43,469 bases of DNA from Escherichia phage vB_EcoM-689R6, in sequence record ON470584. One strand, written 5' to 3'. The notes beneath the pieces are model-generated. The model saw only the letters and a list, made by a program, of their open reading frames with translations. It did not search any database and had not been told where the DNA came from. Positions 1-24,331 of the stretch are shown piece by piece. The position numbers were made by a program, and so were the translations under genes. How positions within the stretch are numbered: position 1 is the stretch's first letter; every line of letters begins with the position of its first letter.

Positions 1-27
1 TTCCTGCTTTTGCTAGGGAGATCTACC

Positions 28-582
28 ATGCTTATTGGCTATGTACGTGTGTCAACAAATGACCAGAACACAGATCTACAACGTAATGCGCTGAACTGTG
101 CAGGATGCGAGCTGATTTTTGAAGACAAGATAAGCGGTACAAAGTCCGAAAGGCCGGGACTGAAAAAACTGCTCAGGACATTATCGGCAGGTGACACTCT
201 GGTTGTCTGGAAGCTGGATCGGCTGGGGCGCAGTATGCGGCATCTGGTCATTCTGGTTGAGGAGTTGCGCGAACGTGGCGTTAATTTTCGCAGCCTGACG
301 GATGCTATTGATACCAGCACACCGATGGGGCGTTTTTTCTTTCATGTGATGGGTGCCCTGGCTGAAATGGAACGAGAACTGATTGTTGAACGAACAAAAG
401 CTGGACTGGAAGCTGCTCGCGCACAGGGACGAATTGGGGGACGTCGTCCCAAACTTACACTAGAACAATGGGCGCAGGCCGGGCGATTAATTGCATCAGG
501 CATTCCTCGCCAGAAGGTGGCGATTATCTATGATGTTGGTGTGTCAACTTTGTATAAGAGGTTTCCTGCAGGGGATAAATAA
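28..582 (+). CDS. pinE: Serine recombinase / DNA invertase (Hin-Gin-Pin family)
   Basis: Translation begins MLIGYVRVSTNDQ, the resolvase/invertase N-terminal catalytic motif (Ser at the VRVST position), with a C-terminal HTH. ATG at 28 is preceded by AGGGAG at 15-20; the ORF track extends to a TTG at 10. Length 184 aa. Followed by mcrA as in prophage e14. Confidence 0.85.
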   Translation: MLIGYVRVSTNDQNTDLQRNALNCAGCELIFEDKISGTKSERPGLKKLLRTLSAGDTLVVWKLDRLGRSMRHLVILVEELRERGVNFRSLTDAIDTSTPMGRFFFHVMGALAEMERELIVERTKAGLEAARAQGRIGGRRPKLTLEQWAQAGRLIASGIPRQKVAIIYDVGVSTLYKRFPAGDK

Positions 583-683
583 AGTTAAAGACACTTTGTG
601 TACAAAATAAAACAACAGCAACTTGTTGCAATTTTATCAATAAAAGTAGTATTGTCGTAAAAAATTGATTAAAGATTAATGCT

Positions 684-1517
684 ATGCATGTTTTTGATAA
701 TAATGGAATTGAACTAAAAGCTGAGTGTTCGATAGGTGAAGAGGATGGCGTTTATGGTCTAATCCTTGAGTCGTGGGGGCCGGGTGACAGAAACAAAGAT
801 TACAATATCGCTCTTGATTATATCATTGAACGGTTGGTTGATTCTGGTGTATCCCAAATCGTAGTATATCTGGCGTCATCATCAGTCAGAAAACATATGC
901 ATTCTTTGGATGAAAGAAAAATCCATCCTGGTGAATATTTTACTTTGATTGGTAATAGCCCCCGCGATATACGCTTGAAGATGTGTGGTTATCAGGCTTA
1001 TTTTAGTCGTACGGGGAGAAAGGAAATTCCTTCCGGCAATAGAACGAAACGAATATTGATAAATGTTCCAGGTATTTATAGTGACAGTTTTTGGGCGTCT
1101 ATAATACGTGGAGATCTATCAGAGCTTTCACAGCCTACAGATGATGAATCGCTTCTGAATATGAGGGTTAGTAAATTAATTAAGAAAACGTTGAGTCAAC
1201 CCGAGGGCTCCAGAAAACCAGTTGAGGTAGAAAGACTACAAAAAGTTTATCTCCGAGACCCGATGGTAAAAGCTTGGATTTTACAGCAAAGTAAAGGTAT
1301 ATGTGAAAACTGTGGTAAAAATGCTCCGTTTTATTTAAATGATGGAAGCCCATACTTGGAAGTGCATCATGTAATTCCCCTGTCTTCAGGTGGTGCTGAT
1401 ACAACAGATAACTGTGTTGCCCTTTGTCCGAATTGCCATAGAGAATTGCACTATAGTAAAAATGCAAAAGAACTAATCGAGATGCTTTACGTTAATATAA
1501 ACCGATTACAGAAATAA
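684..1517 (+). CDS. mcrA: HNH endonuclease, 5-methylcytosine-specific restriction enzyme McrA-like
   Basis: 277 aa with C-terminal HNH motif CENCGKNAPF...LEVHHVIPLSSGGADTTDNCVALCPNCHRELH. AT-rich gene immediately downstream of pin, matching the e14 pinE-mcrA arrangement. Confidence 0.8.
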   Translation: MHVFDNNGIELKAECSIGEEDGVYGLILESWGPGDRNKDYNIALDYIIERLVDSGVSQIVVYLASSSVRKHMHSLDERKIHPGEYFTLIGNSPRDIRLKMCGYQAYFSRTGRKEIPSGNRTKRILINVPGIYSDSFWASIIRGDLSELSQPTDDESLLNMRVSKLIKKTLSQPEGSRKPVEVERLQKVYLRDPMVKAWILQQSKGICENCGKNAPFYLNDGSPYLEVHHVIPLSSGGADTTDNCVALCPNCHRELHYSKNAKELIEMLYVNINRLQK

Positions 1518-1750
1518 AATTGTTTATTAAAGTCACATTTAAGACGTAATACCTTACAGGGTAAAAATTTTCTCTGATCTTAACTTCTGCAAATGTTAAC
1601 TGCTTTTTTTATGCTAAAAATGGTTATCAAAACTCAAAAACACATGTTGATAATCAATGAGTTATGGAAATGCTAAGAGCTAATGAGTTATATGCAAATT
1701 AGTAAAATTATGTTGCTATGTCAAATAGTTACGATTTAATCATCTAACTA

Positions 1751-1810
1751 ATGCTGCGCCATATGGGCTGGACTGAAGCCGCAGACCTGATTGTTAAAGG
1801 TATGGAAGGC
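1751..1810 (+). pseudogene. Displaced 3' fragment of icd (icdC-like), truncated by the assembly gap
   Basis: 1751..1810 encodes [20 protein letters not shown] and is the exact reverse complement of 37509..37568 inside the intact icd gene. Sequence upstream of 1751 has no icd similarity. Confidence 0.8.
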
Positions 1811-1820
1811 NNNNNNNNNN
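1811..1820. other. Assembly gap (run of 10 N)
   Basis: Ten consecutive N characters; the flanking sequences have incompatible orientation (see findings). Confidence 0.95.
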
Positions 1821-2309
1821 TCCACGTCCGTCATCCCAGCCACGAATAAATTCACCGCGTAAATCAGGCAATTTATTTGTCGGGTAAGCCTTTGCCAGTT
1901 CCGGGTATTCTTCAGCAGAAAAAGCTGCTCCGTTGCATTTTAGCCAGCCTGTTGGCGGAGTGGCTGAGGGCCACGGAACAGGCACACCAACAGGTAATGC
2001 AGAGCCTTCTCCCAAACCAAGGTTTTCGAGAGCCGTTTTCACCGTGCCGTCCGATTTGATATCGCCAAACGGATTTTTGCGGCTTAACAGTAGCGCACTA
2101 AGCGCGGTAAGCAGCTGGTCGTGCCGCCCCTTCTCCAGGCTGGCACCGGATGCCTCCACCACGCCGCAAAGCTCCTCCTGCAACATGTCAAAGTAGTCAT
2201 CATCCAGATCGGTGGCAGGTGTGCCGGTCTGGGGGTTACCACGGGTAAAACCGTTCTTACCCGCGCCGAACTTATCCTTCTGCGCGGTTTTCGTGTCTAT
2301 ACGATGCAT
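1821..2309 (-). CDS. Tail fibre protein, N-terminal part (3' end lost in gap)
   Basis: ORF starts at 2309 directly after the gp48-like gene and runs into the N gap. Contains a tail-collar-like motif ([19 protein letters not shown]...[17 protein letters not shown]). An invertase crossover site lies inside the coding sequence. Confidence 0.65.
2007..2032. other. Din-family invertase crossover site (hix/gix-like 26-bp site)
   Basis: TTCTCCCAAACCAAGGTTTTCGAGAG: imperfect 12-bp inverted half-sites around a central AA. Closely resembles the Hin hixL site TTCTTGAAAACCAAGGTTTTTGATAA as I recall it. Located within the tail fibre gene. Confidence 0.6.
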
Positions 2310-2312
2310 GGA

Positions 2313-2897
2313 TTACTCCGGATATTTAAAAATTACGTAGGTATGCGACGGGCAGAGTTTGTTAAGCACACACTCGACAACGGTGTCGCCCCAGATACGC
2401 AGTGCGGAATCACAGGGATCGCCACATGTCATCCAGGTGGTGTTGGTGGCAGCTGCCATGTTGACCTGCCAGTAATACCGCCATTCCGGCGCATTCACCG
2501 CGTCAGTACAGGCCGATGAGCAGGTGAACGTGCTTTTGTCGTATCGCGTGATGCTGGCGTCTGGTCTGCCCAGGGCAGCAAGCTGGGCAAGGTAAAAATC
2601 CTCGTTGATGCCGCCCGCCAGGTTAACCTTCGCATCCAGCCGTTGCTGACGCTGGCGAAGGGTCTGTGTCCCTGTGGGAATACATTCATCCGGCAGACCG
2701 CACAGACGCTCCCAGCGATTTATCAGTTCGGTGGTGGTGCGCGGATCCAGCTCCCGCATCAGGGCATCCGCACGCTGATGAACACGGGTTAATGAAGGCG
2801 CCGCACCGGCAATCGCCGGATCGCTGGCTGACCACGCCGGACCGGGCGGCAACAGTGCCGATAACAGGCGGATGTAATCATCGTTTGTCACGTCCAT
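2313..2897 (-). CDS. Phage tail protein, Mu gp48-like (DUF2313 type)
   Basis: 194 aa; sits between the baseplate J-like gene and the tail fibre gene; stop/start overlap with the upstream gene. Family call is from synteny and general resemblance to YmfQ-like proteins. Confidence 0.6.
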
Positions 2898-3946
2898 GAA
2901 ATCGTCCCCAGAACCGCCAGTTCATTTTTCGCAATGGAGATATTGTCCGCCGGAGCAAGCAACTGATGGCTGTATTCCCCGTTCGCACCGGAAATCGCTT
3001 CACTGATACGTGACACCTTCAGTTCTCCCTGCGGATAACCATCACGCAGCAGGAACGAACGCAACTCCGCGGTGATGGCAGCCCGTATTTCCGGTGTGTC
3101 CGGCGTCACGCGGATATGAAAATCCACCGTATGCGCCACCGGCCTGAACACATACAAATCAGAGCCTGCCACCGGGGCCAGTGGCTCGATGTGTTGTCTT
3201 GCCGCCGTTTCCGTTGATTCTTCCGGAATGGGATTAATCAGGTCACTGCCGGCAATCATCACACCGACAGTTCCCGTTCCCATCCAGTGACGGTATGTCC
3301 ATGCGCGGGTAATGCCGGGCACTTCTTTAGCCCAGACGACATAGTCCCCGTCAGCCCCGCCCTGCGGCGTCCAGTAATACCGCTCAATGACGCGGGCGCG
3401 CCACGTTTCCAGATCTTCAGTATCAAATCCGCCTGTCAGAGTGTCAGCCACACCGGAAGACGGCAGACCATTCACCGGCGTGACCAGGATTAATGCCGTA
3501 CCGTCGTCAGCGTTACCGACCGCGCCTGCACTTGAGCAGGCGATCGGCACGCGCAGGACACCACCGGAGCTGGTTGCATCGGCAGTTGCCGTGTACTGAA
3601 CCAGGTCATCGCGCTGAATCACGCTCCCGGCGGTCACTTTCAGGCCATCGCTGACACCTTCCCAGCGCATATACCCGCTGGCAGCCGTGGCCCCCTTGCG
3701 CGGACACCGTTTCATCGCAGCATGTCGCGCCAGCCAGGACTCATCGCACAGGTCAGGCAGCATGTTCATTGCCAGATAATCGATGTACCCGTAAACCGTA
3801 TGCAGCGCCGCCGCATACACCTTTGCCCGCACGTCTTCATCCATGCGCCGGAGCGTGTCGCTGACGTCCAGCCTGGCGAATAAATCGTTACGGAGCATAC
3901 TGATATTTTCTGCCAGCGTCGGGCGCTGAAATTCACTGTCCGCCAT
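2888..3946 (-). CDS. Baseplate J-like protein (Mu gp47-like)
   Basis: 352 aa, position in baseplate module; overlaps neighbours at both ends as in an operon. Confidence 0.7.
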
Positions 3947-4361
3947 GCGTTATCGCACTCCACAGATCATCAAAAGAAATCATTACCGGTCCGTCACGAC
4001 GCCAGAGAGTGATACTGTTACCCAGTTCATTAATCCCGGTGCGGCGGATATCCAGATCAATACGGGACACCACACCGTCATCAATCATCCATTGCAGGCA
4101 TTCGCGGATATACCCCCTTACCGTCTGCACCAGCTGATTGGTCAGTTTGCTGCGCTGAAGCAGCCACAGCCGGGAGCCGTAACGGTCATTCTGTACCGCA
4201 GGCCAGGTATCCCCCCACCATCCCATCGGGACGTCGGCGTTGTCATCAGGCTCCGCCCGCCGCCAGGTAAACAGGGAAATCACCACGGCGCGGGTCAGCG
4301 GATCCAGCGGTGTGCTGGCGCAGGTGCGTTTACCGTTCACCATCAGCCACAGTTCCATCAT
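3933..4361 (-). CDS. Baseplate protein, Mu gp46-like (GP46 family)
   Basis: 142 aa protein between the V-like and J-like baseplate genes; start overlaps the upstream gene. Confidence 0.6.
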   Translation of the reverse strand: MMELWLMVNGKRTCASTPLDPLTRAVVISLFTWRRAEPDDNADVPMGWWGDTWPAVQNDRYGSRLWLLQRSKLTNQLVQTVRGYIRECLQWMIDDGVVSRIDLDIRRTGINELGNSITLWRRDGPVMISFDDLWSAITHGGQ

Positions 4362-4906
4362 GCCTCCATTGCTTTATCAGGTTTGTCGGTGTTACTGCCC
4401 TGACCGTTCTCTCTGTGACGATGCCCGTTATAGGCAAGCCGCATCGCTGACATGGTGGTGCCGCTGGAGTCGCACAGGTCTTTCACCTGTCCGGTCACTT
4501 CCAGGTCCATTTCAAAACGTGCTTTAGGTGAATTGCGAAACGTGATCGTTTTACCTGCACCGTCCACCACGATCCCCTCCCGGGTCAGCGTCACGGACTG
4601 CCCCTGATCGTCATAGACAGCCACCTCACCCGTCTGCAGCCCTTTCAGGCGGTAGCGCCGGTCCGACACCGTAACAACCACCGCATGAGAACGGTCGCCA
4701 TCCGGAAACAACACCACCGCTTCCGCACCGCTGTTTGCCCTTGCGGTAAAACCGTAGGGTTCAAGATGTTCAACCCCGGCTTTGGGTTCACCGGCAATCA
4801 GAGACACATCCACGGTCTGACATTTCGTGGCGGCACTGATGCTTTTCACCACGGCCCGCCCAATCAGGCCGAGGAGTTGTCGCTGCATGGCTTCAATCGT
4901 CCTCAT
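4358..4906 (-). CDS. Baseplate assembly protein V / spike (Mu gp45-like)
   Basis: 182 aa, in conserved position downstream of the hub gene; 1-nt overlap with the upstream gene. Confidence 0.6.
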   Translation of the reverse strand: MRTIEAMQRQLLGLIGRAVVKSISAATKCQTVDVSLIAGEPKAGVEHLEPYGFTARANSGAEAVVLFPDGDRSHAVVVTVSDRRYRLKGLQTGEVAVYDDQGQSVTLTREGIVVDGAGKTITFRNSPKARFEMDLEVTGQVKDLCDSSGTTMSAMRLAYNGHRHRENGQGSNTDKPDKAMEA

Positions 4907-5985
4907 CAGAACGGGTCCTCCTGTACTCTGGCTTTTTTCTTTTTCCGCGCGCCGGGGGCTTCGGGTTCAGGCAGATAAGCATCAGGTGGGCCGACACGGA
5001 TTTCCGTCAGGGTGCCGTTCTGGTCCTGAGTAAACGTGACTTCCGAAACAAGCAGTTCGGTATTGTCGAAACCACAGACCGGATCAAAGACAATCACCCG
5101 CTGGTTGGGCTGCCACAGCGTACCGTTACCCTGTCGCCAGCCCTGCACCACATAGGTGGTTTCATCCGTCCGCGCCGCCCGTTGTTTGGCTTCAAAGTCC
5201 GCACGGGCAATACAGCCTGCCCCCGTAGCCTGCCCTGTCTGCCTGATATACATCGGACGGTAACGGGCAATAAATGCGTCCTCTGTGCGGGCCCGCAGCG
5301 CGGTGGTGGTGGCCTCACCGAAATCATCGTCGTTTCCGGCACGCTGCCCCGCCACCTGGTAAACAGAAAACCGCTCCCGGATACTCTTCTCCGTATCGCA
5401 GGAAAGGATGTTTTCCCCGAGTACCAGCGCAGTATGTGCCCGCGTTGAGCCAATACCGCCAATCACCAGCCTGCCGTGCGGGTCGTCGTAAGCCAGTGCC
5501 TGCTGCTGACCGAGTATTTTGTTGATTACCTCAATCACCGTTTCACCGTGATCAGGCTGGACATCAGGAATAACACCCGACGGCGCACCGTTGTTCACCA
5601 CCTCAATGCCGAAAGGCGCAGCAAGCGCCTGCGCAATCTGTACCAGCGATCGTCCGTTAAACTGTGTCGGTTCGGCTGCACAGTCAATCAGGTCAGCAGT
5701 CAGACTACGTCCGGCAATACCGGTGCTGACCGAACGGGCATCGTAACGAACGGGGGTCGCCTCCACCCAGCCGGTGATCACCAGCTCATCACCAATCAGC
5801 ACTTCCACTTTTGAACCATTTTTAATGCGCGGCTGAAGCGTGGTGATACCCTCATCTCCCGGCCACTGGCGGGTGATCTCCACACTGAAATCCCGCGCCA
5901 GCCGTTCAATACCGGCACCGATGCGCACCGATGTCCAGCCATTCCACTCCCGGCCATTTACCCGTAGCGTGACGTTATCGTTCAT
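4906..5985 (-). CDS. Tail/baseplate hub protein (Mu gp44 / P2 gpD-like)
   Basis: 359 aa with basic C-terminal tail (GARKKKKARV); follows the DNA circularisation-like gene in Mu order. Confidence 0.6.
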   Translation of the reverse strand: MNDNVTLRVNGREWNGWTSVRIGAGIERLARDFSVEITRQWPGDEGITTLQPRIKNGSKVEVLIGDELVITGWVEATPVRYDARSVSTGIAGRSLTADLIDCAAEPTQFNGRSLVQIAQALAAPFGIEVVNNGAPSGVIPDVQPDHGETVIEVINKILGQQQALAYDDPHGRLVIGGIGSTRAHTALVLGENILSCDTEKSIRERFSVYQVAGQRAGNDDDFGEATTTALRARTEDAFIARYRPMYIRQTGQATGAGCIARADFEAKQRAARTDETTYVVQGWRQGNGTLWQPNQRVIVFDPVCGFDNTELLVSEVTFTQDQNGTLTEIRVGPPDAYLPEPEAPGARKKKKARVQEDPF

Positions 5986-7352
5986 TGCACTGGCACCTTC
6001 AGAGGGATCACCGGCACAAAGCCGGGATGTTTAATGGCATTACGCCGGATAATGTCCGCGTCACGCGCCGCGTTATCAAACCAGGTCGCCGCCAGCACCA
6101 GCGCGGGTAAGACCTCATCCGGCGTGCGCTGAATGATCCGTGCAGACTGTTCAAGGCGCGTGTTGATATCCGCATTCAGATCTGCTTTCACCCGGCGCAG
6201 TGCCAGAAACAGCGCATCACTGGTTGTACGGGACAACTCCTTATCAATTGCCGTATTCAGCGTGTCGCGAATGTCGGTCAGTTCTTCCCACGTTGGCAGG
6301 TCAACCGTGTTTTTCACCGCCGGTGCATTGTTCAGTGCCGGATGCGTGACAGAAGGCCAGCCGGTGCTCTGCGCGGGTGTTGTTGACTGCCCCACTGTGG
6401 CATTCTGCATCACCGCGGAAGTTGTGGGCGCAGGCAATCGTGTGACGGCATACGCCGCTTCGCTGATTGCGGTCGTACGAAGGGTACTGGCAACCACGTT
6501 ACGCTGCTGCGTCGCCGTGGCGGTGGTTTTACTGTCCGTTTTCCAGACGCCGCGCGGTTGCAGATCGCTGCCGAGGCTGACACCGGAAAGCGTTTTGATC
6601 ATGGTGACCAGGTCGCTGGCGTTACCATAAAGGCGTTTCCCGGTACGCCACATTTTCTGCACCTGCTCAACGAAATTTTTGCCTGACGATGGCGGCGGCA
6701 GAAGTACCGAGATATCCCCCTGCAACAGCCTGGCGGCATCCGATACGGCAGAATCCACCACTTTCATCGCATCAGAAACATACCCAAGCATTGTGCTGGC
6801 ATTACCGACGACGTCGTTCTGCACAAAATCTGCCACGCCATCGATACTGAAACCACTGAAACTGTCACTGATGCAGTCATCCAGTGCAGAACAGGATGAC
6901 ATCAGCGTCTGCGCCGTCGCCGCACCTGATGTGGGGTAAGAGAGTTCTCCCGCTTCGACAAACTTCAGGTCAAAGCGGACAATACGCCCTTCACTCTTCG
7001 ATGTGCTGACCCGAACCTCTCCGTCAACACAGACTTTCAGCTCACCGTAAGTCGGATGGACAAGCGTGCCGGGACCGGGTTTATTCAGCGCGTCAATCAG
7101 GCGATCACGCTGGTCAAAGCAGTCATCTCCCACCACATAAGCCGTGATGGACGGGCGAAAAGTGATTTTCCCCAGGTCTTCGGTATAGGGCTTGTCGCGG
7201 TTCGGATATTCGTGTGTTTCCACACGGCGACCGGTTCCCGCACTTTCTTCTTCAACCTTAAACGGCACACCGCGAAATGACGCGTCCTGAAGCCTGTCTT
7301 TCCACGTCATATAAACTCCGTACATAAAAAATCCCACCGGAGTGGGACTCAT
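5982..7352 (-). CDS. DNA circularisation protein N-like tail protein (Mu gp43-like)
   Basis: 456 aa; N-terminus MSPTPVGFFMYGVYMTWKDRLQDASFRGVPFKVEEESAGTGRR resembles the Mu N DNA-circulation N-terminal domain; directly downstream of the tape measure gene. Confidence 0.65.
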   Translation of the reverse strand: MSPTPVGFFMYGVYMTWKDRLQDASFRGVPFKVEEESAGTGRRVETHEYPNRDKPYTEDLGKITFRPSITAYVVGDDCFDQRDRLIDALNKPGPGTLVHPTYGELKVCVDGEVRVSTSKSEGRIVRFDLKFVEAGELSYPTSGAATAQTLMSSCSALDDCISDSFSGFSIDGVADFVQNDVVGNASTMLGYVSDAMKVVDSAVSDAARLLQGDISVLLPPPSSGKNFVEQVQKMWRTGKRLYGNASDLVTMIKTLSGVSLGSDLQPRGVWKTDSKTTATATQQRNVVASTLRTTAISEAAYAVTRLPAPTTSAVMQNATVGQSTTPAQSTGWPSVTHPALNNAPAVKNTVDLPTWEELTDIRDTLNTAIDKELSRTTSDALFLALRRVKADLNADINTRLEQSARIIQRTPDEVLPALVLAATWFDNAARDADIIRRNAIKHPGFVPVIPLKVPVQ

Positions 7353-7370
7353 TAACAGATTAATTTTTCA

Positions 7371-9206
7371 TTACCTGCCAAAGCGCGTATAGCCAACATC
7401 ATGGCTGACATCAAAACCGCTGGATCGCGTTTCCATAACCCGCATACCCGGAGGCGAATTCACAAAAGAGACCTTGATCTCACCATCAACTTTTGGCGCA
7501 GAAGCTTTGTTGATCATGAAGGGATTCGGGCCTGTGGCACCGGAGGCGTTGTTTGCCTGAGCCGGATCCACCGCCGGATAAGGAGTGTATCCCCGTGGCG
7601 GTATTCCCGTCCCATAAGCATCATAAGCACCCGCGCCCCACTGCGCCGAGTTAATGGCATCGACCGTGTCACCGGAACTGTCGGTAAACCATTCAATAAT
7701 CGGCTTCAGCTTGTCCCACATATCCTGAAACCACTTAACAACCGGTCCCCAGTTATTGATCACCATCCCCAGCGGCGACCAGGCAAAAACCTTCTTCAGA
7801 AGTTCCCAGCCTGCCTCAAAATAAGGACCAATAGTTTCCCAGAGCTTCTTGAAATAAGGTCCGACAACATCCCAGTTAGTGATAATTAATCCCGCAGCCA
7901 GAGCAATCGCCGTCGCAATCATGCCAATCGGCGTCATCGACATGATCCTGCTGACAATACTGATGGCACCGCCCACGCCCATCAATCCCAGTTTCAGAAT
8001 CGCAAGACCGGCAGCAAGCCCGACGACGCCGCGAATAACCCGGGGATTTTCATCCGCAAACTTCGTGAATTTCTCCCCCAACTCCCCCAGCCACTGCGTG
8101 ATGTTCTTAGCGTCACCAGAAAATGCGCCGCCAATAGCCGCAAGGCCGTTAGTTGCGGTCCCCGTCATTGCCTCCCACAGGTTGGACAGCGTACCAAGCT
8201 GGGCCTGAACACGTTTATTCAGGCTGGCCTGTTTATTCATCTTCTGCTGGATCTGATCGTAGCCATCCTTTCCTTTATCGATCAGCGCATTGACCACCTG
8301 AAGGGTTTCGGCATCATCACCAAATATTGCCTTAAGTACACCGGTTCGCTTAACGTCGGTCAGTTTTCGCAGCTTTGCCAGTTGCCTGAACATGTTATCA
8401 AGACCGCCAAAACTCCCTTTGCCATCAGTAAAATCGAGCTGTACCCCGAGTTTCTGGCGGGCCATGATTTTATTGACGTCCCTGATTTTCTTAACGCTTA
8501 ATCCGGACTGGATAACTTTTCGCAGGGCATTACCTGCCGACTCCCCGTTCATCCCCATCTGATCCATCATGACACTGATGGGGGCAAGACTCTGTGCAGC
8601 CTGAAGACCGTCCTTGTTCACCATCTTCAGAACAGAGCTGGTTTTAGTGAAGAATGACAACATGTTGGTGTCGTCAACGCCCAGATAAAACGCCTTCTGA
8701 ATTGTGTCGAACAGCCCCATCATGTCTTCTGAGGCCGTTCCGGTAGCATCCTGCATCTTTGCAGCAAACTCAGCAGCCGCTTCCGGTGTTTTTTTCAGTT
8801 GTACCGCAAGATAAGCTGTCGCTTTACCCACACCACCAAGAATGTTTTCTGCCGGGATCCCCTGACGCACCAGCATCTGCATCATGTTCTGGAAATCAGC
8901 CGTTGTACCGGGTAGCTGGTTACCCAGGCCAATAGCCAGTTTATTGATGTCCTGAAAGCTCTTTCCAACCTCGCCGTTCGCATCCATCATGGCGACTTTC
9001 AGCCCGGTGGCGGCGTTTTCCTGATCGGCATAAGATTTCAGGGAAAGCGTCAGACCCGCTGCCAGTCCGCCACCAAGCGCCAGCCCACCCTGTGACGCTT
9101 CTTCCGCCTGGCGTTTAAATCCCCGGATTTTCTTTTGCATTTTCGACAGCGCGGGAGAAAGCCTGTCGACACCGGTGATCAACGCCTTAAGCTCAAATTC
9201 AGCCAT
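7371..9206 (-). CDS. Tail tape measure protein
   Basis: 611 aa, Ala/Gly/Leu-rich helical protein with a hydrophobic membrane-like segment near the C-terminal third; lies between the tail chaperone ORFs and baseplate genes. Confidence 0.8.
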   Translation of the reverse strand: MAEFELKALITGVDRLSPALSKMQKKIRGFKRQAEEASQGGLALGGGLAAGLTLSLKSYADQENAATGLKVAMMDANGEVGKSFQDINKLAIGLGNQLPGTTADFQNMMQMLVRQGIPAENILGGVGKATAYLAVQLKKTPEAAAEFAAKMQDATGTASEDMMGLFDTIQKAFYLGVDDTNMLSFFTKTSSVLKMVNKDGLQAAQSLAPISVMMDQMGMNGESAGNALRKVIQSGLSVKKIRDVNKIMARQKLGVQLDFTDGKGSFGGLDNMFRQLAKLRKLTDVKRTGVLKAIFGDDAETLQVVNALIDKGKDGYDQIQQKMNKQASLNKRVQAQLGTLSNLWEAMTGTATNGLAAIGGAFSGDAKNITQWLGELGEKFTKFADENPRVIRGVVGLAAGLAILKLGLMGVGGAISIVSRIMSMTPIGMIATAIALAAGLIITNWDVVGPYFKKLWETIGPYFEAGWELLKKVFAWSPLGMVINNWGPVVKWFQDMWDKLKPIIEWFTDSSGDTVDAINSAQWGAGAYDAYGTGIPPRGYTPYPAVDPAQANNASGATGPNPFMINKASAPKVDGEIKVSFVNSPPGMRVMETRSSGFDVSHDVGYTRFGR

Positions 9207-9381
9207 GTGTGCGTTTCTCCTGCTCTATCCTGTTTGCCTGACTGACCAGCAAGGGAATTTCACTGATCGGCATATTCAGCAATTCGAAGGGATTAATGCG
9301 CCAGTAGCTGGCGCAGTCAAAGAAGCGATCAGTGAGGTATTCAGCCGTCAGGCCTGGAGGAAAAAACCAGCCACAAGCCAC
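9199..9381 (-). CDS. Possible frameshift extension of the tail assembly chaperone (G-T-like)
   Basis: 60-aa ORF in a different frame overlapping the 3' end of the chaperone ORF and the tape measure start; this geometry is typical of programmed frameshift chaperone pairs. Confidence 0.3.
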   Translation of the reverse strand: MACGWFFPPGLTAEYLTDRFFDCASYWRINPFELLNMPISEIPLLVSQANRIEQEKRTHG

Positions 9382-9617
9382 GCCGCTGCATTCAGGTCTG
9401 CCGGAGACATCTGGTCGACAGAGCTTTGCGGCACTTTCGCCAGCCGCACAATGTATTTCGACACCACATGCGCCAGAAGTCTGACGGACTCATCCTGATT
9501 CATCTGGTAGGGATACCCCAGCTCGCGGACATCCTTCCCGGTGGGTTCATCAAACTCCAGTACGGAGAGTGTCTCGCCATGAGCGATAATCGGTTTCTTT
9601 AACTCAAGCTCTTTCAT
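9348..9617 (-). CDS. Tail assembly chaperone
   Basis: 89 aa ORF between the tail tube and tape measure genes; start overlaps the tube gene stop. Confidence 0.5.
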   Translation of the reverse strand: MKELELKKPIIAHGETLSVLEFDEPTGKDVRELGYPYQMNQDESVRLLAHVVSKYIVRLAKVPQSSVDQMSPADLNAAAWLVAGFFLQA

Positions 9618-9973
9618 TACTGGTAATCCCCTTCTTCACCGTGGAACTCAAGATCAACCGTGCCTTCTTCGGCATTATGGTTCGCTTCGCCGTGCAGCCA
9701 GGCGGACGACAATACATAGACCTGACCGTTCGCCAGCTCGGCAGTGATGGTCATCTCATCAGACGAGGTGATTTTGCTCACCGGAAAATTCTTCGGCACC
9801 TTGAAGGTCCCTTTGACATAAGGCGCACGGTGAGTTTCCTTGCGGTCCACTGAACCGTCCAGGCCGATGATGTCATCATTGACCGTCCTGTTCATGGGCA
9901 CCTCAATGCCGCCGGTCAGCGATAGCTGCTGACCGTCAATTTTGAAATAACAGGTTCCCCCGATACGGGCCAT
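9617..9973 (-). CDS. Tail tube protein
   Basis: 118 aa, immediately downstream of the sheath gene with a 1-nt overlap. Confidence 0.7.
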   Translation of the reverse strand: MARIGGTCYFKIDGQQLSLTGGIEVPMNRTVNDDIIGLDGSVDRKETHRAPYVKGTFKVPKNFPVSKITSSDEMTITAELANGQVYVLSSAWLHGEANHNAEEGTVDLEFHGEEGDYQ

Positions 9974-11466
9974 TATGCAGACTCCTCTGAATACTGAAGA
10001 CGGAACTGGTTAACCACGGCAAAGACACGCAACTGGTTAACATAGTCAGGCGGGAACAGCGTGTTCAGGCGGTTCGGATCGCTGGCATCACGCTCCACAA
10101 CCAGGTACTGCTTAAACAGTTCGTAGTTTTCCACGATCCCCGCACGCTCAAGCTGACGGTAGGTTGCCAGCAGTTCCCCTTTGATCACCGCCGGGGTGAC
10201 AATCGCCTGACCGGGACCAAAGCGGGTACCGTCGCTGGCAAGCTTGTGACGCCCGTACTTACTGGTAATGACGGATTTCAGTTTGCGCAGTACATACGCA
10301 CTGGTATACAGCGTCTCGCTGTCGAGATAGCTGTTATCCGCAACCCCGTAAGCGTTTTTCCTGTACGTGGTGACATCACGCTGAATGCGCAGTACCCCGC
10401 TTTCGACATACGCCGTTGCCACGCCATGAGACAGCAGGGTCTGTTGTTCGGTCATCGTGAACCGTTTCCCCTTCGGCGCAGGCAGCATACCCACCAGCTC
10501 ACCGGTCTGCGTGGGACGTGCCGGATCGTTGCGGATAAACACCGCTGCGCGGGCGGTACGGCTTGCCGCCAGCTCATCGGCAGGCGTCTGGGTGTCTTTT
10601 TCGTACCCCGCCAGGGTAATGTGCTGCTGGTTAAACTGGTCACCTGCGGTCACCAGTTCTGACAGCGTGCCGATCTTTGCCGTATACACATGACCATACA
10701 GCTGACGCGCATAGCTCCAGCGACCGCTGGTATCGTTCATCTCGGTCACCAGCGTGTTAACGGAGGCCGTGTCGTTGAACGGCAGGCCGATATAATCAAA
10801 CGGCTCATCCGCCATTGCAGCCACCGCGCCGGTGAGAACCGGAGCACCCGTTCCGGCGGTACCCGTCGCCACGGCAATCTGTACGCCCGCTGGCAGCACT
10901 TCGCCCCCACCAAAGCCGTAGTAATTGAGGCTGACAGGAATTTCATTCCCGCAAAGCCCCTTATGACGCGCGGTCAGTGTGACCACGCCAGCCGAAGATG
11001 AGGCCGTAAACGGCAGGGCCGGAACGGCATTGATGGCATCCTGGATACTGCTGGCAATCGTCGCAACGTTATCGCCGTTGGTCACCGGTGCCTGCACGCG
11101 GGTACGTCCCACATAAACATTCACCGTGCCGCTTTCGGTTGCTTCCCCGGTCACCGTCAGCGTAACCGTTGCCGCCGCGCCTGTGGCTTCCGGAACGGCA
11201 ATCACATACAGCTCACCAAACGGGTCGGTCTGGCGATAAGCCTCGACCATACGCGCCAGCTGACTTCCCGCACCACAAATCTGGCGTGCATAGTCTGCCG
11301 ATGGCATCAGCACCAGACTGTTGGCAACAATCTCTGCACCGTTATTGGCATGACCAATCAGCAGCGATGCTCCGCTGTCCTGTGCAGTATTCGCCGCCGA
11401 GTTATCCATTTCCGCATAAAAAATCGGAACCAGCGTATTTGACGGAATGGTGTTAAAGCTCGTCAT
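9973..11466 (-). CDS. Contractile tail sheath protein
   Basis: 497 aa; size and position upstream of tube/chaperone/tape measure fit a myovirus sheath. Confidence 0.8.
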   Translation of the reverse strand: MTSFNTIPSNTLVPIFYAEMDNSAANTAQDSGASLLIGHANNGAEIVANSLVLMPSADYARQICGAGSQLARMVEAYRQTDPFGELYVIAVPEATGAAATVTLTVTGEATESGTVNVYVGRTRVQAPVTNGDNVATIASSIQDAINAVPALPFTASSSAGVVTLTARHKGLCGNEIPVSLNYYGFGGGEVLPAGVQIAVATGTAGTGAPVLTGAVAAMADEPFDYIGLPFNDTASVNTLVTEMNDTSGRWSYARQLYGHVYTAKIGTLSELVTAGDQFNQQHITLAGYEKDTQTPADELAASRTARAAVFIRNDPARPTQTGELVGMLPAPKGKRFTMTEQQTLLSHGVATAYVESGVLRIQRDVTTYRKNAYGVADNSYLDSETLYTSAYVLRKLKSVITSKYGRHKLASDGTRFGPGQAIVTPAVIKGELLATYRQLERAGIVENYELFKQYLVVERDASDPNRLNTLFPPDYVNQLRVFAVVNQFRLQYSEESA

Positions 11467-11620
11467 CGGTATTCACCTTTTCATTCACGCGCCGGATATC
11501 ACCCGCTGCTTCACGGCGCAGCCAGTAGTTGTTCTCGTCAACATTTCGCCCTTCGGTGGGCAAAAGGTCACCGCGGGCAGGGTCAGGCACTGACCGCCCT
11601 TTAACAGGTTTCACAAACAT
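11453..11620 (-). CDS. Small hypothetical protein preceding the sheath gene
   Basis: 55-aa ORF (MFVKPVKGRSVPDPARGDLLPTEG...) found by manual translation, not in the ORF track; its stop overlaps the sheath start. Confidence 0.3.
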   Translation of the reverse strand: MFVKPVKGRSVPDPARGDLLPTEGRNVDENNYWLRREAAGDIRRVNEKVNTDDEL

Positions 11621-11628
11621 GAAGATTC

Positions 11629-12189
11629 TCAGGAAGGAAGGGTTATTTCGGTGTGATGTTCGATATCGCCGTCAGGCCCGTTACCGGGATCGAGATAATC
11701 AACATCAATCGCCAGCGTTTGCAGTTCATCCAGACTGTTCAGATCATCCTGCTGGCGGGTATCGTCTTCAGTCAGCTCGCTGATGACCGAAAAATCGAAC
11801 TGATAAATCAGCTCATGACGATTCAGATCCAGCAGCGTGCCGCCGTCATAGGTAATCGGGTTACCGCACGCCTCCGGGTTCCAGCCCAGCAGAGCCTTAA
11901 AGAGCATCTGCCGGACATCGTCCACCACATCATACGAGGCAAACTGACCGCGCTCATCACGCCCGTTACTCAGTATGACAACCACGGAGAAACCCTCTTT
12001 CAGCTCCTGCCAGTAGTCGGTCTGGCTTTTGTTTTCTCCCGGAGAATCATCACCCGGTACAACATATGCCGCAGGGAGTTTCAGCTTTCCGACCTCCGGC
12101 AGATTTTTGAACTGGGCCGCGCCTGCAACCCGGTATTCAAAATACGGACAGCGGGCACGCAGTGCAGCAATAACAGGCGTCAGTTTCAT
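11629..12189 (-). CDS. Tail completion / head-tail joining protein (Mu gp37-like position)
   Basis: 186 aa ORF in the head-tail joining block; overlaps the upstream gene by 4 nt. Confidence 0.45.
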   Translation of the reverse strand: MKLTPVIAALRARCPYFEYRVAGAAQFKNLPEVGKLKLPAAYVVPGDDSPGENKSQTDYWQELKEGFSVVVILSNGRDERGQFASYDVVDDVRQMLFKALLGWNPEACGNPITYDGGTLLDLNRHELIYQFDFSVISELTEDDTRQQDDLNSLDELQTLAIDVDYLDPGNGPDGDIEHHTEITLPS

Positions 12190-12692
12190 CTGTGTCGTCG
12201 CTCCGGCTTCAGTGATTTACGCAATTCCCGCGCCAGAAAATAGCGTGTCCAGCTGCGGTTCTTTTCAAGCGTTTCCACCATGAAGTTATTACGTGGAGCC
12301 AGTCGCCAGCCGCTGCCACCGGATGCACCACGATGATGGCTGCGACGACGCTTTGCCCCTCGCCTCACGCCATAGAACAAAAAAGCCGGATAAAAATCAC
12401 CGGTGATACGGCGGTTTCCCTCTCCATTACGCTGGTTAGGGGCTATACGTGCCATAAAACCAGGGCGATGTTTACTGGCTCTGGGTACCATGTAACCAAT
12501 CGAACGAGCCAGGCGTCCGGTCTGATAACCGGGGTTTTCACCCGGTGCCGACCGCGCACGGCGCATCACCAGCCGACGGGCATCACGCATATGACGCTGA
12601 CCAATCGTGACAAACGCCCGCCGGACACGGGCGCGGTTAAAGCGCATCTCCGCGGGCTGCTGAAAATCAACGTGCAAAAAGGAAGTCGTCAT
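12186..12692 (-). CDS. Virion morphogenesis / tail component (HK97 gp10-like)
   Basis: 168 aa, highly basic; located in the head-tail joining block. Confidence 0.45.
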   Translation of the reverse strand: MTTSFLHVDFQQPAEMRFNRARVRRAFVTIGQRHMRDARRLVMRRARSAPGENPGYQTGRLARSIGYMVPRASKHRPGFMARIAPNQRNGEGNRRITGDFYPAFLFYGVRRGAKRRRSHHRGASGGSGWRLAPRNNFMVETLEKNRSWTRYFLARELRKSLKPERRHR

Positions 12693-13077
12693 TGTTGCCT
12701 CCGTGACTCTGCCTACATTCGCCCAGCTCCGTACACTCCAGCAGCAGAAAGCGCCGCGCCCCGTTCAGATCGCGCTGACGTTTCACCCGGTACACACTGT
12801 CACCGCAGACCACCTCATAATCAGCGGTGATCCCCCGGCGGTAACGAATGGTGATGTAATGGGTGATGGCGTCCCCGGTCTGCGCGGTTTCCTGCCAGGT
12901 GGTGGCACTGGTCTGGATAACCTTCGCCCATGTCCGGAACGTAACCGGGTATTGAGGCTCCACGCCAAAGTTATCCGCGGGCATATCCACCCGCAGGCGG
13001 ATCAGGACGCGTTTATTCAGTTCACCGGGGTCCGGCAGAATGTAGGTTGCGCTGGTCTGCGCCTGACGAATTTTCAT
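12667..13077 (-). CDS. Head-tail adaptor / head closure protein
   Basis: 136 aa ORF following the gp6-like connector gene. Confidence 0.55.
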   Translation of the reverse strand: MKIRQAQTSATYILPDPGELNKRVLIRLRVDMPADNFGVEPQYPVTFRTWAKVIQTSATTWQETAQTGDAITHYITIRYRRGITADYEVVCGDSVYRVKRQRDLNGARRFLLLECTELGECRQSHGGNNDDFLFAR

Positions 13078-13397
13078 TGCGGAAAGTACCTGTACGGGCC
13101 GACAAGCCAGCCAAAACTCTGCGGCATGTCGAGTTTCTCCACTTCCGTAACCGACGAGCGGTTTTCGTAAAAATGGCTGATAAGCATCAGCATCCCCAGA
13201 CGAATATCATCCGGCAGGTGCAGCCCGTCCGGATCGCTGTCCGGAATGGTTTCATCCGGTGCATAGAGCTTCCGGTTCAGATACGTTTCCGTCCGCTTTT
13301 GTGCCGCATAGGCCAGCAGTTGCAGATGGCGGTCATCAGCATCGAAATCCTCATCCAGCCGGAGTTGGGCTTTAATCTCTTCCATTGTCAGAAGCAT
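13074..13397 (-). CDS. Head-tail connector protein (gp6-like)
   Basis: 107 aa, acidic (MLLTMEEIKAQLRLDEDFDADDRHLQLL...); position after the capsid gene. Confidence 0.55.
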   Translation of the reverse strand: MLLTMEEIKAQLRLDEDFDADDRHLQLLAYAAQKRTETYLNRKLYAPDETIPDSDPDGLHLPDDIRLGMLMLISHFYENRSSVTEVEKLDMPQSFGWLVGPYRYFPQ

Positions 13398-13399
13398 AC

Positions 13400-13600
13400 T
13401 CAGCCCTCTTTACTGGTCGTGGCTTTTTTCTCTTTTGTCGCTTTACTGCTTTTTGCACTGGTTCCGCGCTCTGCTAACCCGGCCTGAAGTGCAACCTCCT
13501 GCACCCGGGCAGGAAGCGCCCCGTCGTCATACTCACCGGCCCGAATGACCTCAACACGCATACCGTCCGGTGACCATTTCAGATCTTGTTTCAGGATCAT
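13400..13600 (-). CDS. Hypothetical small protein (head module)
   Basis: 66 aa ORF with Lys/Ser/Thr-rich C-terminus, between the capsid and connector genes. Confidence 0.35.
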   Translation of the reverse strand: MILKQDLKWSPDGMRVEVIRAGEYDDGALPARVQEVALQAGLAERGTSAKSSKATKEKKATTSKEG

Positions 13601-13648
13601 GATTCTTCACCCATCAGAACAGGGGCGCGGTTCCGCGCCCCTGAGTGA

Positions 13649-14854
13649 TTACGCCACTGCAATCTTCAGCAGTTTGATGGCCTGCGAATCGACCAGCATG
13701 CCGCCGGTGCGTTTGGTGGTATAAAAACCGACAAACGGTTTATTGGTGTACGGGTCACGCAGAATGCGGGTGCCGATACGGTCAACGATGGTGTAACCCC
13801 GTTTGAAGTTACCAAATGCAATGGCTTTCGCATCAGCGGCGATATCCGGCATCTGTTCGTTTTCAGCGATACCGTAACCCGCCAGAGAGGACGGCTGCCC
13901 CAGTTCCAGCCCCGGACGCCACAGATAGTTACCCTCGGTGTCTTTCAGCAGACGGATGGCAAACAGGCTGTTGTTGTTCATCATGAACTTCGCGCCAGTG
14001 CGGTGTGCCTTTCGCAGCGTGTAAATCAGTTTGATAATGGCGTCTGCGGTCACCGCAGTCGCGTCGCCGGATACAATATGCTGAAGTTTGCCGAACGCCC
14101 GGACCTTATCGGTTTCATCCGTGGATTCATACGCCAGGAACCCTTTCGGCTTCTTGGTACCATCGCCGGTGGTAAAGGCAATTTCTTCCTGTTCGGCAAA
14201 TTCGGTTGCCAGCTCGCTGTTGATCCAGGCCTCCACGTTGAAAAAGGCATCATCCAGCATTTTCTGGGTGGCCTGCGGGTTACCGTAGATTTCCCCCATG
14301 AAAGGTTCAATCAGCCCCAGTTTTGAGGTGGCAGTCTGGGAGCGCGCGTCAGTCTCGCCAACCCATCCGGAAGCCGTGCCGCCCAGATTCACCAGTTTTT
14401 TGTAGTCGGAACCACCAACGGTGATCACCGTGGCTTCCTGACGCATCACCACTTCATCTTTCAGCAGGTTAAGAATGTTGCGATCCAGTTCTTCCGGCAC
14501 GGCGTAGCCACCGTCTTCATCGGTGCCCACCTGCAATGCCTTACGCTCCAGATCGCGCAGACCGTCTTCACGGCCTTTACGCAGGAAGCCCACAAACGCC
14601 TCTTTATGCTCGGTGGCCAGTTTATTTTGCGCACCACCTGCCGGACGTTTCAGCTCAAGCAGCTCTTTTTCAAGATCGCTTTTGAGGTTTTCCAGCTCGC
14701 TGAGTTTCCCGTTCAGGGTTTCCACCTGCCCGGCAAGTTTGCCTTTTTCCTGCTCAATCGCATCCACGCGCTTGTCGTTCTTTGCTTTGAAGTCGTCAAA
14801 CTTCTGCTGCAGCTCCTGCGCGACCTGTTCGACATCTTTAATATCAACCGCCAT
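13649..14854 (-). CDS. Major capsid protein, HK97 family
   Basis: 401 aa with coiled-coil N-terminal scaffold-like delta domain (LNGKLSELENLKSDLEKELLELK) followed by a capsid body; preceded by protease and portal genes. Confidence 0.85.
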   Translation of the reverse strand: MAVDIKDVEQVAQELQQKFDDFKAKNDKRVDAIEQEKGKLAGQVETLNGKLSELENLKSDLEKELLELKRPAGGAQNKLATEHKEAFVGFLRKGREDGLRDLERKALQVGTDEDGGYAVPEELDRNILNLLKDEVVMRQEATVITVGGSDYKKLVNLGGTASGWVGETDARSQTATSKLGLIEPFMGEIYGNPQATQKMLDDAFFNVEAWINSELATEFAEQEEIAFTTGDGTKKPKGFLAYESTDETDKVRAFGKLQHIVSGDATAVTADAIIKLIYTLRKAHRTGAKFMMNNNSLFAIRLLKDTEGNYLWRPGLELGQPSSLAGYGIAENEQMPDIAADAKAIAFGNFKRGYTIVDRIGTRILRDPYTNKPFVGFYTTKRTGGMLVDSQAIKLLKIAVA

Positions 14855-14868
14855 CGTATTTCTCCTGA

Positions 14869-15555
14869 TTAGAAGTTCAGATTTTTCAGTGCATTCAGTG
14901 CAGAGCCCACATCCTCAGCGTCGCGCAGGGACAGTGCGCCATAGCCCCCGGCCATGAATGCTTTGGCCTGGGTACGGGAGAGTCCGACATCACGCAGGAC
15001 TCTTTCGATTTTTTTCTGTTCGGGGATTTCCCCGCGGGCCAGCGCGTTCTTGACGTCGCTGATCCGCGCCTCGTCGTTAGACGGAAACGTCACCAGACTG
15101 ACTTCCCAGAGGTCGATTTCTTTCAGCAGAAAGGCTTCTTTCGTCTGGTCGTATTCCCAGTCCTTCAGGACGTACCCAATAGAAAGGCCGGTTAACGAAC
15201 CGGCCTTCATGTGTGCATGTGCGCGTTTTGCCAGAGGATCATCATCAATGAGCAACCGCCCCCTGACGTAAAGCCCGACATCGTCTTCCTTCATTTCGGT
15301 GTAAACACCGATGGGCTCATCCATGCGGTGCTGCCAGAGCAGCGCAGGTAACGCTTTTCTGTCACTCCACGCCCGCAGGGAAGCAGCAAATGCCCCGGAC
15401 ATCACCACATCATCGTGGCTGTCCTTTACACCAAAGACGGAGCCATACCCTTCAAACTCACCGGAGTCACTGACAGATTTCAGACTCAGCGGTACATCAA
15501 GACGTTGTTTCGTCTGCATTGGCGTTATCCTTCTGCTTACCGGCTTTACTGCCAT
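14869..15555 (-). CDS. Prohead protease, HK97 family
   Basis: About 216-228 aa between portal and capsid. The likely true start is the internal Met at 15519 (MQTKQRL...), just after the portal stop. Confidence 0.8.
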   Translation of the reverse strand: MAVKPVSRRITPMQTKQRLDVPLSLKSVSDSGEFEGYGSVFGVKDSHDDVVMSGAFAASLRAWSDRKALPALLWQHRMDEPIGVYTEMKEDDVGLYVRGRLLIDDDPLAKRAHAHMKAGSLTGLSIGYVLKDWEYDQTKEAFLLKEIDLWEVSLVTFPSNDEARISDVKNALARGEIPEQKKIERVLRDVGLSRTQAKAFMAGGYGALSLRDAEDVGSALNALKNLNF

Positions 15556-16738
15556 CGGAGGGTTTCGTGGTCATGTTCATCGGTGTGAGATAGACATCCC
15601 CACCGGGACGCGGATTCATATCTTCCAGGTCGCGGCAGTCATTGGGAGAGTAAATTCCCCAGTTAATCCCGGTGGCGTAGGCTTCAAAACGGGACTTCAT
15701 ATCCCCGCGCAGTAACGCCCCGGCGTTAAATTTGGCGTAATAAACGCCCTGCTTACTTTTTCGTACCAGTCCGGTGTTGATCCGCTGTTCGATGCGGGTC
15801 AGATACGGCACCAGTGAATAGTTGATAAATCCGAGCCCCAGTTCTTCGATATTGTTGAAGGTGGCGCGATCGGTGTTCTGCACCATGTGCAACGGTACCC
15901 GGAACAGACGACAGATTTCTTCAAGCTGAAACTTGCGGGTTTCCAGGAACTGGCTGTCCTCGGCGTTCAGCGCCATCGACTTCCAGTCCAGCCCCATCTC
16001 AAGGATCATCGGGCGGTGAGCATTGCCAAGCCCGGTGTGACGCTCCTCAAAATCTTTCTTCAGGCGCTCATAAGCCTGATCTGACAGCGTCTGCTCTGTA
16101 CGCAACACACCCGACGTCACCGCACCATTGCTGAACAGTCTGGCCCCGTGCTCTTCAGTCGCTGCCGCCAGCGATATTGCCTCGCGGGCATAGGCGACGG
16201 GATTCAGCCCCACCAGTCCGTCCAGCGTCAGCGTGCGCACATGCCAGATATCCTCCTGGCTCAGCACATCCGTGGAGCCGTCCGGGAATGTGACCTGATA
16301 GACCGGCTCCCAGCTACTGTTAAGCTTCGGTACCACACAGCCGGGATCGACGGGCAGCAGTTCAGCCACTTCGCCAAATGCTTTCACTTTGTAGGCGTAA
16401 AAGTTTCCCCGCAGGCACAGACAGGTGACCACCAGCTCCCAGAACTCCTGCGGCGTCATATAGCCATTGGGATGCGTGGAGATCAGCTTATGCAGACGTT
16501 CGCCGGTGGCCCTCTGTTTCAGGCTGCCGTTCAGGTGATACAGATTGCAGGGCAACATCCCGACCGACTCTGCCAGCACCCTGACGCAGGAAAAAACCGC
16601 CGTCAGTCGCATGGCCCGCTGGCTGCTGATCTGCTTTCCGGTATAGGTGTCATATGACAGCCCGATAGCATCCGCCAGCTCTGCTGGCGTGGTCACCGGC
16701 GCGTCACTTTTTCGTTGAAATAATCCCGAAAAGAACAC
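15497..16738 (-). CDS. Portal protein, HK97 family
   Basis: 413 aa, downstream of the large terminase gene. Confidence 0.85.
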   Translation of the reverse strand: MFFSGLFQRKSDAPVTTPAELADAIGLSYDTYTGKQISSQRAMRLTAVFSCVRVLAESVGMLPCNLYHLNGSLKQRATGERLHKLISTHPNGYMTPQEFWELVVTCLCLRGNFYAYKVKAFGEVAELLPVDPGCVVPKLNSSWEPVYQVTFPDGSTDVLSQEDIWHVRTLTLDGLVGLNPVAYAREAISLAAATEEHGARLFSNGAVTSGVLRTEQTLSDQAYERLKKDFEERHTGLGNAHRPMILEMGLDWKSMALNAEDSQFLETRKFQLEEICRLFRVPLHMVQNTDRATFNNIEELGLGFINYSLVPYLTRIEQRINTGLVRKSKQGVYYAKFNAGALLRGDMKSRFEAYATGINWGIYSPNDCRDLEDMNPRPGGDVYLTPMNMTTKPSDGSKAGKQKDNANADETTS

Positions 16739-16920
16739 TATTTACCTCCGCCGACAGACGACTGTGTACGGTCAAGATATCGCGCCACCAGCCACGACCA
16801 GAACAGGCACAACGCCCCGGCAACAACAAACCCCGCCGGGGGATAAATCAGCCAGGCACCATACGCCAGCAAAAGCGCCCCCAGCACGCCCACCAGAGGC
16901 GCGAGAATCAGCATGATCAT
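16738..16920 (-). CDS. Small membrane protein (two predicted TM helices)
   Basis: 60-aa hydrophobic ORF between the terminase large subunit and portal genes; 1-nt overlap with the portal start. Confidence 0.35.
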
Positions 16921-16931
16921 AATTACCTCAG

Positions 16932-19156: not shown

Positions 19157-19161
19157 ATGCG

Positions 19162-19185
19162 NNNNNNNNNNNNNNNNNNNNNNNN
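19162..19185. other. Assembly gap (run of 24 N)
   Basis: 24 consecutive N characters in the HNH-terminase intergenic region. Confidence 0.95.
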
Positions 19186-19291
19186 ATTTCATTTTTCGCG
19201 GGTATAAAAAAACGATGGGGCGGGCAGTCCGGAAGACGTCAGGCCGCAGGGATTTGACCCGCCCCTCCCCTCAGGAAGTTGAGAATCATTA

Positions 19292-19642: not shown

Positions 19643-19699
19643 TGAAGAAAACTCTTTGTAATAAGCATAAAAACCCCATATTGAATGGGGCTTGATGAA

Positions 19700-21396: not shown

Positions 21397-21399
21397 AAA

Positions 21400-24318: not shown

Positions 24319-24331
24319 GCTCGTTCTCCAC

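Follow-up and report, generated by a model that had tools for sequence, protein, structure and literature searches.

Genes and features of the window

The window, the whole stretch of 43,469 nucleotides analysed here, consists of a small block and a large one separated by a run of ten N. The small left block carries a DNA invertase gene, an endonuclease gene and a fragment of the host gene icd; the large right block begins inside a tail-fibre gene and extends through an e14-type prophage to its integrase gene, intact icd and the host genes beyond. The features on which our argument depends are as follows.

1..1810, plus strand: contig A (block A), made up of pinE, mcrA and the start of icd'; argued below to lie in the wrong orientation in the scaffold
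28..582, plus strand: pinE, a 184-aa serine DNA invertase (Pfam Resolvase, 8e-52; HTH_7, 4e-14); the identical DNA is annotated as pinE in RefSeq
684..1517, plus strand: mcrA, a 277-aa 5-methylcytosine-specific HNH endonuclease (Pfam HNH, 2e-15); the identical DNA is annotated as mcrA in RefSeq
1751..1810, plus strand: the displaced 3' fragment of host icd (icd', attR side), of which the first 60 nt are present before the contig end cuts it
1811..1820: a run of exactly ten N, the placeholder of a scaffold gap
1821..43469: contig B (block B), 41.6 kb, an e14-type prophage on the minus strand from 1821 to intE and intact icd
1821..2309, minus strand: the N-terminal 163 codons of a tail-fibre gene (Pfam Collar, 7e-16), cut by the gap
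2007..2032, plus strand: pixL (TTCTCCCAAACCAAGGTTTTCGAGAG), the P-segment crossover site on the left; its central AA, 2019..2020, is where exchange occurs
19162..19185: a second N run, of 24 N, absent from the earlier note on this DNA
34337..35467, plus strand: intE, at the prophage's attL end, encoding a tyrosine integrase of the lambda type (Pfam Arm-DNA-bind_1 and Phage_integrase; annotated as intE in RefSeq)
37404..38654, minus strand: intact icd (Pfam Iso_dh, 5e-92), with a 3' end supplied by the prophage and a copy of the repeat at 37509..37568

To the right of the gap, the tail, head and baseplate genes all lie on the minus strand. Beyond the tail-fibre fragment there is a complete set of baseplate, tail, head, terminase, lysis and regulatory genes, and intact icd is followed by the host genes rluE, nudJ, mnmA, hflD and purB. 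The tail-fibre gene is 251 aa (756 nt) when complete and is annotated as 'phage tail protein' in NZ_CP145634.1 (hereafter L001), a closed genome in which positions 41407..41895 are identical to window 1821..2309. Within the fragment, the constant part of the gene runs from 2309 to about 2021, and the first 198 nt of its invertible variable part occupy 2018..1821.

The two ends of the element share a repeat of icd sequence. Translation of the piece of icd' at 1751..1810 gives Icd residues 363-382 (20 aa), and an exact reverse-complement copy of it is found at 37509..37568, within intact icd. In the closed genome L001, the icd' pseudogene extends to position 45482 and the exact icd/icd' repeat measures 77 nt, such that contig A ends 60 nt into the repeat. 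Over its 3' 217 nt, intact icd and the displaced icd' of that genome are 92% identical. As in e14-type elements, integration is at the 3' end of icd, with a replacement 3' end borne by the phage and the displaced icd' at the far end; a lambda-type tyrosine integrase adjoins icd, and xisE is annotated in the 99.93%-identical closed genome. The 77-nt exact repeat would be the product of e14-type prophage integration into icd.

One feature departs from the e14 type. As assembled, icd', mcrA and pinE lie on the plus strand and are not co-directional with icd and the tail genes, which lie on the minus strand. The earlier note had drawn attention to this discrepancy, and its description holds: pin, mcrA, the icd' fragment at 1751..1810, intact icd and the tail genes are all found where it had placed them and on the strands it had given. 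It had also observed that the icd' fragment runs into the N gap and is followed by a tail-fibre gene, and indeed the N occupy exactly 1811..1820 with the fibre gene beginning at 1821 and continuing to 2309 on the minus strand.

Block A in complete genomes

Five complete E. coli genomes carry both blocks at 99.9-100% identity; the block 1..1810 is found at 100% in five complete chromosomes, and the block 1821..4400 at 100% in three of the five. In NZ_CP145634.1 (L001), NZ_AP041134.1 and NZ_AP041137.1, block A is 100% identical to the window and block B (1821..43469) is 99.93% identical, with the two blocks aligning on opposite strands. In L001, window 1821..43469 aligns to the minus strand and window 1..1810 to the plus strand, at 43568..45377. 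Base 1 of the window faces base 1821 at a spacing of 1672 bp in each of these three genomes, and base 1810 in L001 faces away, toward the remainder of icd' and host DNA. With the N run excluded, block B differs from its closed relatives by three SNPs and one 1-bp indel in 41.6 kb, and the window and L001 are thus essentially one lineage.

We fetched 14 loci and compared block A, the tip of block B (1821..2005) and the constant part of block B separately. In all 12 long loci that have both, those of the five genomes above and seven others, including the K-12-like e14 locus L014, block A lies opposite to the constant part of block B; the window differs from these 12 in having the two on the same strand. 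Likewise, icd', mcrA and pinE are co-directional with icd and the tail genes throughout the 12 long loci used for reference, as they are in 311 complete genomes. Our census covered 5426 complete E. coli genomes, of which 329 contain at least 80% of block A. The window junction, with 300 bp included from either flank of the gap, was contiguous in none of the 5426, nor was window 1..4032 as drawn. Reverse-complementing 1..1810 and following it with 2033..4032 gave an order that is contiguous in 311 of the 5426. Both contig ends run on at 100% identity into the standard arrangement of the closed relatives.

Taken together, these comparisons indicate that the 1.8 kb block A has very probably been joined to the 41.6 kb block B in the wrong orientation, as an artefact of a draft E. 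coli scaffold. We attribute the loss of co-directionality to the scaffold, not to the element, and the odd gene order reads as an assembly artefact laid over well-known biology, not as a real feature. The argument on orientation is built on near-identical relatives of the sequenced strain, from which the correct orientation of block A, the size and content of the missing piece and the positions of the crossover sites can be read directly. The earlier note had proposed a scaffold orientation error, had predicted that reverse-complementing 1..1810 would restore the expected order and had suggested comparison with a closed genome as a check. In near-identical relatives that comparison gave the predicted result: the restored order is that of the 12 long loci and the 311 complete genomes, and the orientation drawn in the window occurs in none of the 5426.

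On this evidence, the true order would be host DNA, the rest of icd', the reverse complement of block A (with icd', mcrA and pinE all on the minus strand), 39 bp containing the right crossover site, 1633 bp of the P segment and then block B; the ten N would stand for about 1.7 kb of unassembled sequence. The corrected layout reads icd, intE, xisE, regulatory and morphogenesis genes, ymfQ, a P segment of fibre, tfa, tfa and fibre', pinE, mcrA and icd'.

Once 1..1810 is reverse-complemented, gene order and strands are identical to those of K-12 e14, in which the order is icd - intE ... stfP/tfaP/tfaE/stfE - pinE - mcrA - icd'. The integration site is also the same, with intact icd carrying a phage-supplied 3' end and a displaced icd', and the two elements have in common intE, pinE, mcrA, ymfQ and the 16-nt inverted repeat of the P segment. 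Block A is 97.6% identical to the K-12-like e14 locus. The element in the window is full length (about 35 kb) and retains intact genes for terminase, portal, capsid, sheath, tube, tape measure and baseplate; K-12 e14, in contrast, is what deletions have left, with partial genes fused together. Beside intE the cargo also differs, being a GmrSD_N/DUF262 gene and a 220-aa ORF in the window and lit/ymfD/ymfE in K-12 e14, and the variable cassettes of the tail fibre diverge from those of the K-12-like e14 (about 94% identity in the tip). Neither the full length nor the different cargo has a bearing on the orientation finding.

The invertible P segment and the content of the gap

The gap hides most of the Pin-invertible P segment. 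The inverted crossover sites in L001 are at 41685..41710 and 43515..43540; the first corresponds to window 2007..2032, and the second, the right site, lies 27 nt from window base 1. The 16-nt repeat CCTTCTCCCAAACCAA, at window 2005..2020, is the inverted repeat given for the e14 P segment (PMC12529663). A search of the window for the partner of pixL, the right crossover site, did not find it, and pixL is the only such site there. Of the invertible segment, some 198 nt (1821..2018) are in the window, and the remainder is missing.

The P segment flips naturally among near-identical strains. Alignments of the window to genomes in the P(+) and P(-) states change strand within 2006..2020. In NZ_CP195459.1 and NZ_LR890714.1, block A is 100% identical to the window and the P segment is flipped: window 2006..6148 aligns on one strand and 1821..2020 on the other. 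In this flipped state, 1821..2020 (plus) lies 39 bp upstream of 1..1810 (plus), the two co-oriented as they are in the window. Among the 11 loci that contain block A, the constant part of block B and the tip of block B, five are P(+) (L001, L004, L007, L008 and L011) and six are P(-) (L002, L003, L009, L010, L012 and L014). Only the tip of block B changes strand among the long loci; block A never flips relative to the constant part of block B. Wild-type K-12 cultures mix both orientations of the e14 P segment, with about 30% inverted, and the inverted state is found in 33% of 562 deposited genomes (PMC12529663).

PinE has the Resolvase catalytic domain and C-terminal HTH_7 domain of the Pin family, and its segment is found in both orientations. 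The locus in the closed relatives shows no mechanistic difference from the Gin, Cin, Hin and Pin switches (the Mu G, P1 C and e14 P segments). As in those systems, the serine recombinase gene stands just outside a segment of about 1.8 kb that has inverted 26-bp sites at its ends, one of these sites falls within the fibre gene where its constant part meets its variable part, two alternative fibre C-termini are encoded in opposite orientations, each with its own tfa chaperone, and both orientations occur among otherwise identical genomes. For Gin, Hin and Cin, a Fis-dependent recombinational enhancer is known within the 5' part of the invertase gene. Compared with a complete switch, the window has one site and 198 nt only, the remainder being unassembled.

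The sequence hidden by the gap can be read from L001, where it spans 41896..43567 (1672 bp), of which the P segment accounts for 1633 bp. It contains the final 88 of the tail fibre's 251 codons and a 197-aa tail-fibre assembly protein (tfa) on the same strand as the fibre, followed by a 146-aa assembly protein (tfa) and a gp53-like alternative fibre end, both on the strand opposite to the fibre. It also includes 39 bp outside the exchange point (L001 43529..43567), holding the outer part of the right crossover site. Thus, where the earlier note had placed the rest of the invertible tail-fibre region in the gap, most of it does fall within these 1672 bp; about 198 bp (1821..2018), though, are present in the window.

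If the scaffold is left uncorrected, the prophage boundary would be drawn wrongly, with attR seemingly inside the element; the tail-fibre gene would be called truncated; and the invertible switch would seem to be absent. The correction consists of reverse-complementing 1..1810 and treating the gap as about 1.7 kb that contain the rest of the P segment. The value of this finding is limited to that of a quality note, as the underlying biology is ordinary and already known.

Alternative readings and the origin of the scaffold orientation

The two N runs bear on how the blocks came to be joined. The 24-N run stands for 14 bp of the closed genome, GCACTCCTGGTTAA, and because 24 N replace 14 bp, the N runs must record estimated scaffold gaps, not masked stretches whose length was known. 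By convention ten N is the shortest gap written, and therefore the run at 1811..1820 is uninformative about the real distance. As is typical of scaffold gaps, the number of N does not match the length that is missing (ten N correspond to 1672 bp, and only after block A is flipped), and the flanks of the gap are non-contiguous in finished genomes. As to size, about 1.7 kb are really missing where the scaffold shows some 10 bp.

The best-surviving alternative is that the ten N are a mere spacer between concatenated or ordered contigs, such as those of a pseudomolecule or a list ordered by reference, in which case the orientation carries no information and nothing was mis-scaffolded. The conventional length of the run would suit a spacer, as would the fact that the window begins exactly at a contig start. 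We nevertheless regard this reading as improbable: the other run, with 24 N for 14 bp, resembles an estimated gap size, and blocks A and B are true neighbours 1.7 kb apart, which arbitrary concatenation is unlikely to produce and which argues that some linking evidence was used. Ordering against a reference, moreover, would normally have oriented block A correctly too.

Less probable still, to the point of being a very long shot, is that the arrangement is real, with pin-mcrA-icd' turned round and joined to a truncated tail-fibre gene, and with little of the P segment left. Either illegitimate recombination or the action of Pin at a cryptic site could have brought this about, and the result would be a rearranged e14-type prophage with its switch locked. 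Such a rearrangement has no positive support, and it keeps this slight probability because the junction, being a run of N, was never sequenced. Against it, the junction and orientation occur in none of the 5426 complete genomes; icd' holds no crossover-like site, and the whole window has a single such site; and the contig ends have no overlap or microhomology in either orientation. Both ends, moreover, continue at 100% into the standard order in closed relatives, and block A stops within an exact repeat, which is typical of assembly breaks. A milder reading that is not an artefact is that the scaffold orientation records a sub-population with a flipped P segment, which would be ordinary Pin biology. 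The notion that the N run masks a short, contiguous and correctly assembled stretch is effectively refuted: N-masking does occur in some public collections, but the flanks of the gap are contiguous in no complete genome (0 of 5426) and lie on opposite strands in each relative compared (all 12 long loci), and the second run has 24 N where 14 bp were replaced.

Returning to a misoriented block A, the locus offers reasons for an assembly to break there. Block A would be bounded by two features that break short-read assemblies, the Pin-invertible segment on one side and the 77-nt icd/icd' repeat on the other. Of 1101 collection blocks with this exact McrA, 463 place it on a contig of less than 2 kb, and hence block A is routinely a small orphan contig. 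The end of an independent 5.19-Mb contig (L013) coincides exactly with the right crossover site's inner edge. Evidently, assemblies break at this locus habitually. The situation resembles known cases of small-contig mis-orientation in short-read assemblies in that block A sits between an inversion switch and an exact repeat and is joined through a minimum N run, and in that independent assemblies also break at the locus. Breaks in short-read assemblies are routine here because of Pin-type switches and the icd/icd' duplication, which can also mislead scaffolders.

Why the scaffolder chose this orientation is a separate matter, on which we put forward a preferred cause only tentatively: the sequenced culture may have held both orientations of the P segment, which would have prompted the misorientation. 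In flipped molecules, the tip of block B (1821..2020) would lie 39 bp upstream of block A, on the strand that the window shows. Such molecules would yield read pairs that co-orient blocks A and B with an impossible negative distance, which could plausibly be written out as a minimum gap of ten N. The misorientation may then be a by-product of Pin inversion and not random. The alternative cause is a generic mis-orientation of a small contig.

The mixed-orientation account fits both the orientation and the ten N, and it leaves unexplained how far block B reaches into the segment (198 nt) and how far block A is offset (40 nt). Neither of these contig ends falls at a crossover point: the left end of contig A is 27 nt past the right crossover site and 40 nt outside the right exchange point, and contig B extends 198 nt into the P segment. 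A simple de Bruijn graph of a culture with mixed orientations is thus an incomplete explanation, as it predicts contig ends at the inner edges of the inverted repeats, as seen in L013, and not 198 nt inside or 40 nt outside.

We also considered whether the 1672 bp were lost as a collapsed repeat of another prophage. For the closest relatives this was unsupported, as each of the three nearest P(+) closed genomes has the hidden sequence once only, and for the same reason an ordinary dispersed repeat does not explain a loss there; in the draft strain itself such a collapse may have occurred. At the other end of block A, it is tempting to speculate that a contig ending 60 nt into the 77-nt repeat would fit unitigs built with k = 61 (k-1 = 60).

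Gene content compared with K-12 e14

Compared with L014, the K-12-like e14 locus, the window prophage (1821..37400) is of the e14 type and full length, at ~35 kb. It has intact genes for terminase, portal, capsid, sheath, tube, tape measure and a Mu-like baseplate, whereas K-12 e14 keeps only fused partial genes, namely an HTH/terminase fusion and a portal/baseplate J fusion. The two elements also differ in their cargo between intE and icd, as the site that holds lit, ymfD and ymfE in K-12 e14 is occupied in the window by two other genes:

35567..37278: intE-icd cargo, first a 350-aa GmrSD_N/DUF262 gene, then a 220-aa ORF that overlaps it

The 220-aa ORF has no Pfam match. Together with the GmrSD_N/DUF262 gene, it may form a two-gene defence module.

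Differences from the closed relative

The 220-aa ORF has an intact reading frame in the draft window. However, at a poly-A run (window 36924; ~6800 in L001, the corresponding locus of the closed genome), NZ_CP145634.1 has one more A, which breaks the ORF into 103-aa and 83-aa parts, and the region is without annotation there. Thus, the additional A in the closed genome may be a homopolymer error, or the frameshift there may be real. Over 41.6 kb, the window and NZ_CP145634.1 are separated by three substitutions in total, one of which (window 9541) is nonsynonymous and falls in an 89-aa tail assembly chaperone, with Thr26 in the window and Ile26 in NZ_CP145634.1.

Gaps, contig ends and repeats

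The window contains a second run of N:

19162..19185: 24 N, corresponding to 14 bp in the closed relative (GCACTCCTGGTTAA)

By comparison with the closed relative, GCACTCCTGGTTAA is the ribosome-binding region immediately upstream of the small-terminase start codon. As 24 N stand for 14 bp, the N-run lengths in the window's scaffold are estimates.

In an independent near-complete assembly (GCA_046937505.1), the end of the main contig, of 5.19 Mb (L013 1..60), coincides precisely with the right crossover site's inner edge (CTTCTCCCAAACCAAC...). Assemblies besides that of the window are therefore also disrupted by the invertible segment.

Beyond icd', the displaced host icd 3' fragment, the closed relatives carry two IS200C copies:

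L001 (NZ_CP145634.1), 45678..46847
L002 (P segment flipped), 8111..9280
L003 (P segment flipped), 8111..10147

The spacing between the copies differs among these relatives, with iraM and ymgK in between in some genomes. The pair is an additional repeat structure downstream of the true right neighbour of contig A (window 1..1810).

An identical mcrA is found in CP133644.1 (L006), where it adjoins a truncated pin remnant of 68 aa. Its surroundings there are unrelated, fragmented genes, and the e14 tail genes are absent. The locus has either been rearranged or been poorly assembled.
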